A stretch of DNA of 64,000 nucleotides from an uncultured bacterium (GTDB taxonomy: Bacteria; Babelota; Babeliae; Babelales; Vermiphilaceae): assembly GCA_963713925.1 (NCBI GenBank), contig OY970212.1, forward strand, positions 1,212,274-1,276,273, given 5' to 3'. A program made the translations under genes and the position numbers. A model generated the notes under the pieces. The model saw only the letters and a list, made by a program, of their open reading frames with translations. It did no database searches and was not told the DNA's origin. This document shows positions 23,937 to 27,870 of the stretch, one piece after another; position 1 is the first letter of the stretch; every line of letters begins with the position of its first letter.

Positions 23937-25814
23937 ATGCGCATTTTTCTTTTTATCATCCTATCGATCTTTTCAATACAGCAGATTTCATCTTATTATG
24001 ATCCGTATGATCCAAACAATAACGGCCCCAATCTTTTGGATCAAGGCGAACACAAAAATCATAATTCCAACAATGATGAAAGAAACCGAAAAAAAGGCCC
24101 CATTACCAACATTCCGATTATAAACGTGATTATTACAACGGCGGCCATCGGTTATTTGACGTATCTGGAAATCAAGAAAGTTCCGGAGCATATAAACACG
24201 CTGAAAAAGTGGAAAAAAAAGTTTATAGGTGACAATCACACGGTTAACGAGTCCGGACCTTATACCGTGCAATTGTTTGAACATTACTTTGAATTAACAC
24301 CACGAGAGTATCAGGAATATAAGAAATGTTGGTTTAAATGGGATTTTTACGTAAACAATCTTCGCAGGCTTCTAGATTGCGGCAGAGCGTGGGATATATA
24401 TTCCTCAAAGCCTATACGACCAAAACCACAGCCACAGATTTCAAATGCACCGCAACGGCAATCAGAGCCAAAGCAGCCGTCAGAGTCGCAAGTCAAACCG
24501 GAACAAAAGCTTGAAGCACCTCCAGAAGTACCTCAAGTAGAAGAAAAATATCTCATTGTTCATGAACACTTCAGAAATGATCTGCCGGAGTTGCAGAAAA
24601 ATAATCAAAAATTGCGTTGTTGGATTGAAAAAAATATAAACCCCAACGAAGTTCCCGATCGATACAAAACAGATATCTCAACCCTTTCCAATGATGTTTT
24701 TGCGGTTCATGAGTTTAATCTGCAAGAACTGAACGACTACATCAAAGAGCACAACCTTGACCCGAAAGCATGGGAAAGGCTCTACGGCAATGAAATTCAA
24801 AGAGCCTTGCATAGAGATTCAATTCAGCTCCTTGAGCAAAGCCGAAACCCATTTAAAAGTTGGCTTCAGGAATATAAAGAAGATCTTATCAAAACGATCG
24901 ATGCCGGCAGAGCGCTCAACGAGCTCGGTTATTGTTCAAAAGCCACCAAGGTTAATAACTTCTGTTCTTCTTTGATGCACTACGGTAACGTCGCGCAAGA
25001 GGGAGTTGTAAACGGAGCGATTTCGCGAACCCCCACAAATCCTTGGGCGATCGGCGCCACTATTGGAGTAATAACTGCCGCCGTACTTGTTCCGGGAGTA
25101 GCGGAAGCGTTGTTAGTTTATAACATTTTGCAATGCTCATATGAATTCGGGCAGACGTTAGGGCTATTGATCTGCAAAGACGATCCGAGAGCACAAAAAG
25201 AACTTAATGAAAAATTTGAACCTTTCAAACAACGCTTTAAAGATTCCTACGGATGGGAAGACACATTATACGATGCAGCGCATGTAACCGGTGAACTCGG
25301 CGGCGATATCGTTGTCGCCAAAGCAAGCAAAACCGTGGCAAAATGTGTCGGAAAAGTTGTCGATGTAGTAAGCAAATTTCCCAAAAAGCCTCAAGGCGAA
25401 GTTGTTGCCACAACTCCTGATGGACAAAAGATCAAGGTCCCTGATGAGAGCAAGAATCAAAATACACAGCGAACAGCGACTGAAAAAAATGTCGGCAGAC
25501 AGATCGCAAAGGAGATTAAACAGGCTGCAAGAACCATTGATGATCTTCTGAAAGAATGTGCGCCTTGGGACAAACAAAAAGGATCAACCAAGCAATATAC
25601 AAAAATGGGAAGTTTTCAAGACGCTCTTAATGACTTTAAATCGTTATCACCCATAAATATAACCGATGCTTCTGATGCAGATAAAGTATGTTTTTATGGA
25701 TACCTGTGCGATGGTAAAACTGTAATAGCTCGAAATATAAGTAAAAAGCTAGGGCCAACCCTGGAAATTCAATACCCGAATAGTAATAAAACAATAAAAA
25801 TTCGATATAGTTGA
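23937..25814 (+). CDS. large exported protein, candidate polymorphic toxin/effector
   Basis: 625 aa. Signal peptide plus a TM segment. Pro/Gln-rich linker (PKPQPQISNAPQRQSEPKQPSESQVKPEQ). Hydrophobic helical hairpin (WAIGATIGVITAAVLVPGVAEALLVYNIL). Short C-terminal module ending GPTLEIQYPNSNKTIKIRYS. No family recognised by eye. Confidence 0.6.
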   Translation: MRIFLFIILSIFSIQQISSYYDPYDPNNNGPNLLDQGEHKNHNSNNDERNRKKGPITNIPIINVIITTAAIGYLTYLEIKKVPEHINTLKKWKKKFIGDNHTVNESGPYTVQLFEHYFELTPREYQEYKKCWFKWDFYVNNLRRLLDCGRAWDIYSSKPIRPKPQPQISNAPQRQSEPKQPSESQVKPEQKLEAPPEVPQVEEKYLIVHEHFRNDLPELQKNNQKLRCWIEKNINPNEVPDRYKTDISTLSNDVFAVHEFNLQELNDYIKEHNLDPKAWERLYGNEIQRALHRDSIQLLEQSRNPFKSWLQEYKEDLIKTIDAGRALNELGYCSKATKVNNFCSSLMHYGNVAQEGVVNGAISRTPTNPWAIGATIGVITAAVLVPGVAEALLVYNILQCSYEFGQTLGLLICKDDPRAQKELNEKFEPFKQRFKDSYGWEDTLYDAAHVTGELGGDIVVAKASKTVAKCVGKVVDVVSKFPKKPQGEVVATTPDGQKIKVPDESKNQNTQRTATEKNVGRQIAKEIKQAARTIDDLLKECAPWDKQKGSTKQYTKMGSFQDALNDFKSLSPINITDASDADKVCFYGYLCDGKTVIARNISKKLGPTLEIQYPNSNKTIKIRYS

Positions 25815-25822
25815 GAAGAATT

Positions 25823-26248
25823 ATGAATGAACATTGGATCAGGTGGGAACCATTACCAGGATTGAAACCTCGTTATTATATTGTTTCCGTTACAGATAAC
25901 ACTAAGGGATTTGAGATCATATTGGAGACCATTAATACGGCCGAAAAAGCGGTGAGAATTTTTTTTGAAAATTCCGTTGAATCTTATCGATTGATTGATG
26001 AAAGCTATGCCGGTGGTATAGGCCCTACAGATGAAAATTCAAAAGAATCATTTGAGCCTTGGTGTTTTTTTAAAATTAAAAATTCTAAATATCTGAAATG
26101 GTTTATTGATACGTCTGTAGGAATGGTCGAAATACGGAAAAGAAACTTCATTCATTTTTCAATCTTGGGCGAAAATTCGTATCTTGATATCATAGCAGAT
26201 ACGAATTCAGAACCTATTGTAGAGTTTGTAGACCGAACTATTGCGTGA
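25823..26248 (+). CDS. small cytoplasmic protein, candidate immunity protein 1
   Basis: 141 aa from the ATG at 25823, 9 nt after the upstream stop. No signal peptide. Same strand as the upstream gene. Confidence 0.5.
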   Translation: MNEHWIRWEPLPGLKPRYYIVSVTDNTKGFEIILETINTAEKAVRIFFENSVESYRLIDESYAGGIGPTDENSKESFEPWCFFKIKNSKYLKWFIDTSVGMVEIRKRNFIHFSILGENSYLDIIADTNSEPIVEFVDRTIA

Positions 26249-26293
26249 CTAACTTTTTTGTCTGCAAGACTACGTGTTCAAGGGTTATTGAAT

Positions 26294-26638
26294 ATGAAAT
26301 TTGATAATAAATTTTTACAAGATATTAACATAAAATTTGGTGATATCTTCATCGATAGTTTTGAAATTAACCCAAGCCTTCCGCTTGAGGGACAAGAACT
26401 TGCATTTAGAGAAGATCTTATTCATATAACCTTTGGAAAAGGAAATGGCGTTGATGTTGGTTGGTACCCATCAATTAAACCATATGGATTCTTCACAATC
26501 ATAGTTGTTTGTAATTATGATTGGGAGAATCCCATATATAAAAAACAATGCAAGTCTTTAGAAGAAATGAAAAAATATCTCCAAGAAGCAATCGATATTG
26601 CCGACAAAATGTACCGCTCTCAATATGAAAATAAATAA
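26294..26638 (+). CDS. small cytoplasmic protein, candidate immunity protein 2 (paralogue of 27463-27870)
   Basis: Shares FGKxNxVDVGWYP, DWxNPxY and LQEAIxIAD blocks with the ORF at 27463-27870. No signal peptide. Confidence 0.55.
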   Translation: MKFDNKFLQDINIKFGDIFIDSFEINPSLPLEGQELAFREDLIHITFGKGNGVDVGWYPSIKPYGFFTIIVVCNYDWENPIYKKQCKSLEEMKKYLQEAIDIADKMYRSQYENK

Positions 26639-27437
26639 ACTAAAAGAAGTATCTTATGACGACAACGATGCCTATTTTTTAAAAAAATGCGGCCCGTTTA
26701 TTGGCCTGAATAAATCCTACCGACATTTTGAAATTTATGATTTTGATTTAAATCGAATCAATCTTATCAATTTTAAAAAAAAGGTTCTCATTACAAGCGA
26801 TTTTTTTTCCAAAGATGGAAAAAATTGCGCTTTGTATGATTATGATAATCAGCAATTTGTTTTTTTTGATATCTCACATAACGAAGCATTTTACCTTAAA
26901 TTGCCCAGACATTTCCACCACGCAATCTCTTTTTTCTATTTTTGGATAAAGGATACTTTGGTCATCGTGTGCGAAAATGGAAAATTACTCAAAATAAGCG
27001 ACAAAAAAATTCCATCAATCTTGGATCAAGAGGTTGCTCGATCGTCTTTTCCCGATATTTATGATTTTGTTGCATATACAAAAAAATATGAGAGAATTTT
27101 TCAAATCAGCTACGAACTTAAAAGTTTCATATCCGCTGAAAATGGCATTATAACATTTCACAACCTTAGCGAAAATAGAACATTTACCACGTCCGAGCCT
27201 AATAATAATTATCATGACATCATATTTTCGAACGGCTTTTTTGCTATTATTGCCGAAAAAGAAATCATTATTAAAAATGAACAAGATGCTCAAATTATTC
27301 CCACAAAAGACTTGGAATGGTTTTTACGAGGCGTCTTCATAAACGAGGAAAATAAATTATTTTTTTATCTTCTTTCAAGCAACTTTGCTAATCATCGTCT
27401 ATCTAAAATCATGCAATACGAGATTCAATTAACTTAA
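26625..27437 (+). CDS. hypothetical cytoplasmic beta-rich protein, candidate immunity protein 3
   Basis: About 270 aa from the ATG at 26625, overlapping the upstream ORF by 14 nt. Repetitive beta-strand-like pattern. Very AT-rich. Confidence 0.5.
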   Translation: MKINKLKEVSYDDNDAYFLKKCGPFIGLNKSYRHFEIYDFDLNRINLINFKKKVLITSDFFSKDGKNCALYDYDNQQFVFFDISHNEAFYLKLPRHFHHAISFFYFWIKDTLVIVCENGKLLKISDKKIPSILDQEVARSSFPDIYDFVAYTKKYERIFQISYELKSFISAENGIITFHNLSENRTFTTSEPNNNYHDIIFSNGFFAIIAEKEIIIKNEQDAQIIPTKDLEWFLRGVFINEENKLFFYLLSSNFANHRLSKIMQYEIQLT

Positions 27438-27462
27438 CAATTTTTATGTCTGGAACTTTCAC

Positions 27463-27870
27463 ATGTCTAAAAAAAGACATTTTCAAAGCAAACATTTGGC
27501 CGATATTGATCTGAAATCAGGCAAACTTGAATGGGATAGTTTTGCAGTTGATCCAACAATCCCATATGAAGATCAAGAGTTTGAACTCAGTTGTTGTTTG
27601 ATTCTAATCGGATTCGGAAAAAAAAATTGCGTTGATGTTGGCTGGTACCCCGAATTCAATACAAAAGGATCATTCCGAGTCGTTGTTATTCTTAATTCCG
27701 ATTGGGACAATCCTGTTTATGACAGATGGTGTAAAGCTTTCAAATCACTCAAAAAATGCTTACAAGAAGCGATCAACATTGCCGATCAAATCTATAATTA
27801 TAAACGAGGAATTAACATCACGGAATTTTATGAGCCGGGAGATCAAATCGATCCTTCAATACTCGCATAA
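27463..27870 (+). CDS. small cytoplasmic protein, candidate immunity protein 4 (paralogue of 26294-26638)
   Basis: Alignable over its whole length with the 26294-26638 product (FGKKNCVDVGWYPE, DWDNPVY, LQEAINIADQIY). Confidence 0.55.
   Translation: MSKKRHFQSKHLADIDLKSGKLEWDSFAVDPTIPYEDQEFELSCCLILIGFGKKNCVDVGWYPEFNTKGSFRVVVILNSDWDNPVYDRWCKAFKSLKKCLQEAINIADQIYNYKRGINITEFYEPGDQIDPSILA

Follow-up and report, generated by a model that had tools for sequence, protein, structure and literature searches.

A probable polymorphic toxin-immunity locus in an uncultured bacterium of the Babelota

Introduction

What is encoded by the five consecutive genes, here named A to E, that separate a Nudix gene from gpmI in the genome of an uncultured bacterium of the family Vermiphilaceae (Babelota)? 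The genes lie on contig OY970212.1 of assembly GCA_963713925.1, in a stretch of 64,000 nucleotides (positions 1,212,274 to 1,276,273) that was analysed at its full length and is referred to below as the window. A preliminary description of this DNA had proposed that A is the toxin of a polymorphic toxin system and that the four small open reading frames (ORFs) behind it include its cognate immunity gene and spare ones. Such systems are recognised by a common N-terminus with differing C-terminus, by an adjacent immunity gene and by orphan cassettes (PMC4436062). At the locus under study we observed a common trunk with differing tips, a tip that is found also on unrelated trunks, a downstream gene that co-varies with the tip, and what are probably orphan immunity genes. 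These observations support the proposal, and we consider it highly probable that the locus is a polymorphic toxin-immunity module.

Shared trunk, different tips

When 5.8 billion proteins were searched with A as a query, only A itself and a protein of 662 aa, P0002, were returned. P0002 is encoded on the same 1.3-Mb contig as A, which is 1,318,721 bp long and to which exact look-ups also assigned B, D and gpmI. By BLASTP, residues 1-518 of A align with residues 1-543 of P0002 (46% identity, E 2e-149), and no alignment of the two tips was obtained beyond residue ~518 of A. When identity was calculated in blocks of 25 residues, it amounted to 88% in residues 1-25 and to 68% in the next block, and it fell to background beyond residue ~505. 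Conservation within the trunk is highest over the first 25 residues, and this points to a targeting signal. By contrast, the least conserved region is the linker that precedes the central domain (16-32% identity), whose composition is strongly biased, with 11 Pro and 8 Gln in the 50 residues from 156 to 205 and Pro, Gln, Glu and Lys together making up 64%.

Most of the architecture that had been proposed for A was recovered in this comparison. The signal peptide or transmembrane segment corresponds to two hydrophobic stretches, at residues 1-20 and 56-79, and the Pro/Gln-rich linker is the region just described. As for the hydrophobic helical hairpin, a strongly hydrophobic stretch is present at residues 369-400, where hydropathy reaches its maximum for A (2.21 at residue 376), and it is conserved in P0002; the hairpin shape is only possible. 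The likeness of HVTGELGGDIVVAK to a pre-toxin membrane module could not be confirmed, as neither Pfam nor NCBIfam gave a match. The central domain of the trunk is matched by no Pfam or NCBIfam model either and, more generally, the statement that none of the domains belongs to a named family holds for all of A to E against both collections. A sequence search of the PDB with A gave no match. A scan of genome contigs revealed no relatives of A, and the trunk is weakly similar to only two other toxins, namely a CT2-type protein of 619 aa in the locus L066 (hmmsearch E 1e-5) and the CT1-type protein P0268 (E 4e-5), where CT1 and CT2 denote the tips of A and of P0002, respectively.

The homology between A and P0002 stops about 20 residues past the motif VATTPDGQ (Table 1), and a similar motif, VVTTDGT, precedes CT1 in P0136, so that VATTPDGQ is a candidate demarcation motif of A, comparable to those that separate trunk and tip in other toxins of this kind.

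The same boundary is visible in the base composition. The whole block had been described as more AT-rich than its neighbours, and this is true of CT1 through E (G+C 0.30-0.36) and not of the trunk, since the N-terminal 518 codons of A have a genome-typical G+C of 0.418, to be compared with 0.407 for the window. The single parts measure 0.364 for CT1, 0.347 for B, 0.307 for C, 0.303 for D, which is the minimum of the locus, and 0.360 for E, and the B-E block (0.327) falls in the lowest 0.65% of the 2-kb windows in the 64 kb. Since the break in G+C coincides with the CT1 boundary of A, the AT-rich part consists of the tip and the small genes rather than of the entire block.

CT1 occurs on unrelated trunks and is followed by a B-type gene

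To collect the relatives of the tip, an exhaustive HMMER search was performed with residues 505-625 of A against 1.84 billion representative sequences, at E ≤ 1e-3. It gave 420 relatives, in proteins ranging from 78 to 1049 aa, and in nearly all of the 150 listed of these 420 the match ends near the C-terminus; a scan of viral contigs for CT1 found none. A Pfam scan of 10 CT1 proteins revealed a pretoxin-HINT domain in one of them (P0131) and RHS repeats in two (P0133 and P0147). Moreover, tblastn against annotated records showed that CT1 terminates a 'hemagglutinin repeat-containing protein' of Duffyella gerundensis and that, in Neisseria gonorrhoeae, it is present in a 150-aa cassette 3' of a MafB-like gene, which is the layout described for maf genomic islands (PMC4287609). 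As far as sequence can tell, CT1 is an exchangeable tip carried by unrelated trunks (Rhs, PT-HINT, haemagglutinin-repeat and maf cassette). The variable C-terminal domain that had been predicted for A was therefore found from two sides, in the trunk common to A and P0002 with its unrelated tips, and in the occurrence of CT1 on trunks unrelated to that of A.

The gene that follows CT1 is largely conserved together with the tip. In six of the seven CT1 loci from metagenomes (L068-L073) the immediate downstream ORF is a B homologue of 134-154 aa (phmmer E 9e-32 to 2.6e-13), and a B homologue lies directly 3' of CT1 also in N. gonorrhoeae (L075, E 2e-10) and in Duffyella (L076, E 3.8e-14), which gives 8 of 9 loci other than the one studied here. 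Since the trunks at the CT1 loci are mutually unrelated, the conserved unit is the CT1-B pair and, because its homologues come next after CT1 with this regularity, B is the candidate cognate immunity protein of CT1, in agreement with the cognate gene that the preliminary description had placed behind the toxin. B is acidic and CT1 is basic, and the ATG start of B is found 8 nt past the stop codon of A. A word-index protein search with B recovered B alone, its homologues having come from the fetched CT1 loci, and the family has neither a Pfam or NCBIfam model nor a match among PDB sequences.

The gonococcal locus deserves a short description of its own. Positions 1215-6749 of L075 hold a maf-island-like array with a MafB-like gene of 509 aa, small ORFs, the CT1 cassette (3824-4276) and the B-type gene (4280-4681); downstream of this pair there is a further cassette (5466-6335) with its own small ORF. 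The record is 2.17 Mb long and chromosome-sized, yet PLSDB lists it as a plasmid, and no gene is annotated in that region.

C and E belong to the partner family of a second tip

The preliminary description had noted that two of the four small ORFs are paralogues. They are C and E, which share 48.6% identity over 105 aa (tblastn E 7e-32). A profile search with four sequences gave 173 relatives of the C/E family, 7 of which are on the same 1.3-Mb contig; the others include metagenome-assembled genomes (MAGs) of Candidatus Babeliaceae, Babeliales and Dependentiae, as well as Enterococcus, Rummeliibacillus, Vagococcus, Pseudomonas and Pedobacter. Both C and E are acidic, and their family is unrelated to that of B. 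Neither the C/E family nor CT2 is represented by a Pfam or NCBIfam model and, although the AlphaFold2 model of C/E has a high confidence (predicted local distance difference test, pLDDT, 93.5), Foldseek found no significant neighbour for it in the PDB (top match E 1.2).

What connects this family to toxins is its position. C/E homologues are found directly 3' of toxins ending in CT2 in L002 (two copies), in Babeliaceae (L064), in Dependentiae (L066) and in Enterococcus ureasiticus (L063), and the last ~110 residues of the large proteins at L064, L066 and L063 are homologous to the tip of P0002; the CT2-associated genes that are matched by C are matched also by the protein E, at E values from 5e-31 to 2.5e-15. 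The CT2 profile in turn matches residues 1427-1528 of PDB 8qjc_A, a Rhs toxin of Salmonella bongori, at E 2e-38, so that CT2 is carried by Rhs (8QJC), by an Enterococcus protein of 925 aa and by Dependentiae trunks. The homology to 8QJC, with the motifs HG-KH and TIHGHP, is a property of the P0002 tip and not of A, whose own tip is unrelated to CT2. For the S. bongori toxin, cloning failed without the immunity gene and an RNase fold was predicted (bioRxiv 10.1101/2024.02.26.582050); through this homologue, the toxicity of CT2 and its neutralisation receive indirect support. Because their family sits directly after CT2-ending toxins, C and E are probably spare (orphan) immunity genes against the CT2 of the sister toxin. 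The suggestion that the locus holds spare immunity genes was thus supported for these two ORFs, and their probable target can now be named.

The sister toxin has a locus of its own. At positions 1-2813 of L002, from sample ERR11523654 and also present on the 1.3-Mb contig, a second toxin, P0002/P0003, combines a trunk like that of A with the tip homologous to the S. bongori 8QJC toxin, and it is followed by two tandem genes of the C/E family. Three more paralogues, P0008, P0011 and P0014, are encoded on the same contig.

Two of the more distant loci were also informative. In the Babeliaceae MAG (L064, 5944-10182), a CT2-type toxin of 686 aa adjoins dnaA and is followed by a C/E homologue, by a gene with a match to PF28101 ('CdiI-like') and by three small ORFs of 131, 129 and 205 aa; judged by homology, these genes form a further immunity array of the Dependentiae. 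In E. ureasiticus (L063, 3215-7542), the 925-aa protein contains repeated pre-peptidase-like or sorting-domain-like modules and ends in CT2, and downstream of it we found a C/E homologue, an orphan Ntox21 fragment of 97 aa and an ORF of 171 aa. Its predicted products make it a Gram-positive polymorphic toxin locus with the same CT2-C/E pair.

D is different from its neighbours. It is annotated in the public record; searches of Pfam, NCBIfam, plasmids and all fetched loci gave no homologue of it, and comparison by hhalign indicated that it is unrelated to both the B and the C/E families.

Predicted fold and possible activity of CT1

CT1 was modelled by AlphaFold2 with good confidence (pLDDT 90.7, predicted template modelling score 0.80) as a short helix, a strand-helix unit and five strands. 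In an alignment of 25 tips, the invariant or near-invariant positions are, in the numbering of A, Q553, G558, F567, G588, L590, D592, G593, R599, S602, P607, T608, E610, K621, R623 and Y624, and in the model the conserved Arg, Ser, Thr, Glu, Lys, Arg and Tyr are located on the last three strands and the intervening loop. Neither Pfam nor NCBIfam, against which 25 CT1 members were also scanned, nor PDB sequences gave a match to a curated family; the profile found in the PDB only spurious matches to PPR/TPR repeat proteins, which are due to a helix motif. Foldseek searches of the model against the PDB and BFVD returned nothing at E ≤ 0.001. The top PDB match, which is not significant, is teneurin-2 (6fb3_A; E 0.18, probability 0.82, TM 0.52, 21% identity), for which the matched region of the 1836-residue chain is not stated, and further weak matches are nucleotidyltransferases and binding proteins of the bleomycin-resistance/glyoxalase type.

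This list of neighbours raises the question of whether CT1 is a toxin at all. Teneurins contain an antibiotic-binding-like domain, placed between the YD shell and an inactive Tox-GHH domain (PMC5851990, PMC6425310), and CT1 could be a binding or adhesion module of that type, in which case A would belong to the cell surface or a membrane and B would serve as its partner or chaperone. The order of the structural matches, teneurin-2 followed by the bleomycin-resistance/glyoxalase-type proteins, all of them weak, would fit such a function, as would the fact that CT1 is unmatched by known catalytic toxin families. Not only are these matches non-significant, with the teneurin region left unspecified, but CT1 is found at the terminus, where Rhs, HINT, CdiA-like and Maf proteins carry their toxin, with a small acidic cytoplasmic protein next to it, as in toxin/immunity pairs; moreover, the charged and polar residues that are invariant in CT1 lie on strands that follow one another, which suggests a catalytic site. 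We therefore regard a binding module as very unlikely, and we infer that CT1 is toxic and acts within a bacterial cytoplasm.

With regard to the kind of activity, CT1 is a small basic alpha/beta domain with invariant Arg/Ser/Thr/Glu/Lys/Arg/Tyr on three consecutive strands of the model and with an acidic cytoplasmic partner, and for this reason our best guess, to be taken as tentative, is that it could be a metal-independent RNase. Two other assignments were considered and discarded. An ADP-ribosyltransferase, which the order R-S-E might recall, was rejected because the residues are 11 apart in a domain of 100 residues, which is too compact, and a Pol-beta nucleotidyltransferase or RelA-SpoT-like fold, to which the weak Foldseek matches pointed, was rejected because there is no conserved acidic triad.

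Export, target and weighing of the alternatives

If the locus is a polymorphic toxin-immunity module, it could work as follows. A would be a modular exported toxin, composed of a lineage-specific trunk of ~518 residues and of the exchangeable tip CT1 of ~100 residues. It would be exported via Sec by means of its conserved N-terminal signal-like segment, and would then leave the cell through a type II secretion system or in vesicles, while the internal hydrophobic hairpin may aid the passage of the tip across the target membrane. B would bind and neutralise CT1 in the cytoplasm of the producer, C and E would protect against CT2-type toxins coming from the cell's own second locus or from kin, and D would be a passenger of the same cassette. 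The main use of the system would be competition among related bacteria. As possible export route, a type II secretion set is encoded in the window at 11-30 kb from A (Table 1); type II secretion is among the routes proposed for polymorphic toxins, and vesicle release has been discussed for MafB (PMC4287609).

Several observations weigh against the identification of the locus as a polymorphic toxin module. No orphan fragment of a toxin tip is present in 25814-27894, unlike in many Rhs, contact-dependent inhibition (CDI) and Maf arrays. CT1 has no counterpart among curated toxin families or solved structures in Pfam, NCBIfam, the PDB and Foldseek. D, which may be a further orphan immunity gene, is without support in that role, and position alone would back the label. 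No dedicated transporter (TpsB, MafA, or a type VI or type VII secretion system, T6SS or T7SS) adjoins the locus. Finally, the topology of A is ambiguous, since the tip would remain in the cytoplasm of the producer if the signal is cleaved off and is followed by a single span and a hairpin.

This last topology can also be read in another way. A might be an unsecreted protein of the inner membrane, with its tip facing the cytoplasm, and CT1 and B might form an internal module of addiction or stress response, similar to a toxin-antitoxin pair. That B-E are cytoplasmic, being devoid of signal peptides, and that no gene for a dedicated transporter is adjacent would agree with this arrangement. Tip swapping, tips in common with classes of secreted toxins and arrays of orphan immunity genes are instead unlike a toxin-antitoxin pair, and the conservation of the first 25 residues speaks for a targeting signal, so that we consider an internal module extremely improbable and an exported toxin the better explanation.

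A different question is against whom an exported toxin would be directed. Cultured Dependentiae are intracellular parasites of protists, and Zhang et al. reportedly proposed in 2012 that endosymbionts redeploy polymorphic toxins against their hosts. A could accordingly be delivered as an effector to the interior of the protist, where CT1 would hit host RNA or another target, with B providing self-protection during synthesis. Relatives of the C/E proteins and of the CT2 proteins bear the names Babeliaceae, Babeliales and Dependentiae, which is compatible with a host-directed role, and the hydrophobic hairpin of the trunk (residues 369-412) could enter a host membrane. Spare immunity genes, however, of which C and E are examples among seven C/E paralogues, make sense only if bacterial toxins come in; moreover, the CT1/B pair is present in CdiA-like and Neisseria Maf contexts, that is, in interbacterial weapons (PMC4287609), and no eukaryote-like domain was found in A by the Pfam scan. 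A host-directed effector thus appears rather unlikely to us, even if the two functions are compatible and a polymorphic toxin would not exclude a use against the host.

The structural and the ecological hints could also be combined in one scenario, to which we assign a low probability. CT1 would be an undescribed toxin fold and would correspond, on the bacterial side, to the antibiotic-binding-like domain of teneurins, this domain would be the relic of a second polymorphic-toxin tip once paired with an immunity protein of the B family, and obligate intracellular Dependentiae would fight each other inside protists by a trunk with membrane-inserting segments.

Organisation of the locus and genomic surroundings

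The five-ORF arrangement agrees with the preliminary description, all of A-E being on the plus strand at the positions given in Table 1. The packing is tight as described, with spacings of 8 nt between A and B, 45 between B and C, -14 between C and D, 25 between D and E and 23 between E and gpmI, and none of B-E has a hydrophobic N-terminus, in line with the lack of signal peptides that had been noted. No terminator-like sites were detected on the plus strand from the locus to the end of gpmI, and a search for flanking repeats around the locus found none. An Rfam scan of the whole window at gathering thresholds gave no RNA family, tRNA included. In a scan of GTDB species representatives with gpmI, the closest relatives showed ≤40% identity, and no close relative was found.

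Table 1. Coordinates of the genes, of the segments of A and of the secretion genes in the window.
Feature	Position in the window	Strand	Extent	Remarks
clpB, flank upstream of A	20045-22675			
Nudix gene, upstream flank	23150-23836	minus		Pfam NUDIX E 6e-14
A	23937-25814	+	625 aa	
N-terminal hydrophobic signal-peptide-like segment MRIFLFIILSIFSIQQISSY	23937..23996	+	A residues 1-20	hydropathy peak
Second hydrophobic, transmembrane-like segment	24102..24173	+	A residues 56-79	19-residue Kyte-Doolittle mean >1.5 in windows starting at 56-61; present in P0002
Pro/Gln/Glu/Lys-rich linker	24402..24548	+	A residues 156-204	composition
Conserved central scaffold domain	24537..24986	+	A residues 201-350	56-88% identity to P0002
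Strongly hydrophobic stretch, possible helical hairpin AIGATIGVITAAVLVPGVAEALLVYNILQCSYEFGQTLGLLI	25041..25172	+	A residues 369-412	hydropathy maximum of A
VATTPDGQ, final conserved motif ahead of the variable tip	25404..25427	+	A residues 490-497	invariant in A, P0002 and P0003
CT1, candidate toxin domain	25506..25814	+	A residues 524-625	uncurated family
B	25823-26248	+	141 aa from ATG	start of the public annotation; 145 aa from TTG at 25811
C	26294-26638	+	114 aa from ATG	longer ORF from 26258, 126 aa
D	26625-27437	+	270 aa from ATG	longer ORF from 26598, 279 aa
E	27463-27870	+	135 aa	
gpmI, downstream flank	27894-29495			
GspE-like ATPase	38889-40595			
Pseudopilin with N-methylation motif	40741-41394			
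GspC with PDZ domain	50392-51501			
GspD secretin	51509-54100			
PilM/GspL-like protein	54097-55728			
Second secretin	56296-59229			

Some other genes of the window were noted. Between clpB and the Nudix gene, a membrane protein of 122 aa (22794-23162) is encoded, which starts with a signal peptide, contains hydrophobic stretches rich in glycine and gave no family match; similar glycine-rich hydrophobic segments also precede CT1 in several HINT-type toxins. At 18396-19640, a protein of 414 aa contains GIY-YIG and UvrC RNase H-like endonuclease domains and is far shorter than a canonical UvrC. Finally, the region 41583-45152 encodes a TamB-like protein of 901 aa, then a PLD-like (PLDc_2) protein of 281 aa; proteins of the PLD family could be either phospholipase effectors or cardiolipin synthase-like enzymes.

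Significance and comparison with known systems

A full-text literature search for papers in which Dependentiae and polymorphic toxins are both mentioned retrieved none. The locus described here, with the reservations expressed above, would add a reduced genome of 1.3 Mb to the range of polymorphic toxin-immunity systems in which tips are swapped and spare immunity genes are kept. To judge from the names given to relatives of the C/E proteins, this genome is probably that of a member of the Dependentiae, and the spare immunity genes would mean that there are encounters and attacks among these bacteria. Four uncurated families were defined, namely CT1, the Dependentiae trunk and the two immunity families, B-type and C/E, and a link was drawn between C/E and the Rhs toxin of S. 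bongori, for the immunity family of which neither Pfam nor NCBIfam had a model. Since it is widespread and has a confidently predicted fold without a solved neighbour, CT1 is a good target for biochemistry. In our opinion, the interest of the locus lies in the host lineage, in the widespread CT1/B pair and in the weak and unverified structural echo of the teneurin domain.

That echo can be compared with what is known of the animal protein. Teneurins descend from bacterial YD-repeat toxins, and teneurin-2, which contains an antibiotic-binding-like domain (PDB 6FB3; PMC5851990), is the top, non-significant, structural neighbour of the CT1 model. HMMER, however, revealed no sequence similarity, and the settings differ, CT1 being found at the C-terminus with an immunity-like gene beside it and the teneurin domain inside its protein, where it has no catalytic function.

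Among bacterial toxins, the MafB/MafI system offers a close parallel (PMC4287609), with a signal peptide (putative in A), a conserved N-terminus, a variable C-terminal toxin, an immunity gene directly 3' and more immunity genes after it; the maf islands also have a G+C below that of their genome, and a CT1/B-type pair is itself present in a maf-like locus of N. gonorrhoeae. Unlike MafB, A is devoid of DUF1020 (PF06255), its Pfam matches at E ≤ 1 being only noise, and no mafA-like gene is adjacent; furthermore, its immunity genes are not interspersed with orphan tip cassettes as in Maf arrays, and its trunk contains internal hydrophobic segments.

With the Rhs/YD-repeat toxins the locus has in common CT1, which is present on Rhs-repeat proteins, the tip of P0002, homologous to that of the PAAR-Rhs toxin of S. 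bongori, and the same logic of a downstream immunity gene; A differs from them in having no RHS repeats, PAAR domain or DPXGL-type cleavage motif, and the window showed no T6SS genes. Similarly, an exchangeable tip past a demarcation motif, a cognate immunity gene and orphan immunity genes are features of CdiA/CdiI, and CT1 with a B homologue occurs in the haemagglutinin-repeat locus of Duffyella; by Pfam and NCBIfam, A contains neither haemagglutinin repeats nor a TPS domain; it also lacks a VENN motif, and its neighbourhood holds no CdiB/TpsB gene. Since DUF1020, RHS repeats and haemagglutinin/TPS domains are all missing, A falls outside the MafB, Rhs and CdiA families.

The pretoxin-HINT toxins of Dependentiae-like bacteria from metagenomes, such as P0131, P0138 and P0142, resemble A in several respects: they begin with a signal peptide, which is putative in A, their tip is CT1, it is preceded by a hydrophobic segment rich in glycine and, in L070 and L073, a B-type gene comes next; the HINT autoprocessing domain is theirs and is absent from A. 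Taken together, and on the probable identification reached above, the locus joins the known class of polymorphic toxins with an undescribed trunk and with tip and immunity families that are uncurated and that, according to their predicted homology, it has in common with the MafB/MafI, Rhs-CT/RhsI and CdiA-CT/CdiI modules.

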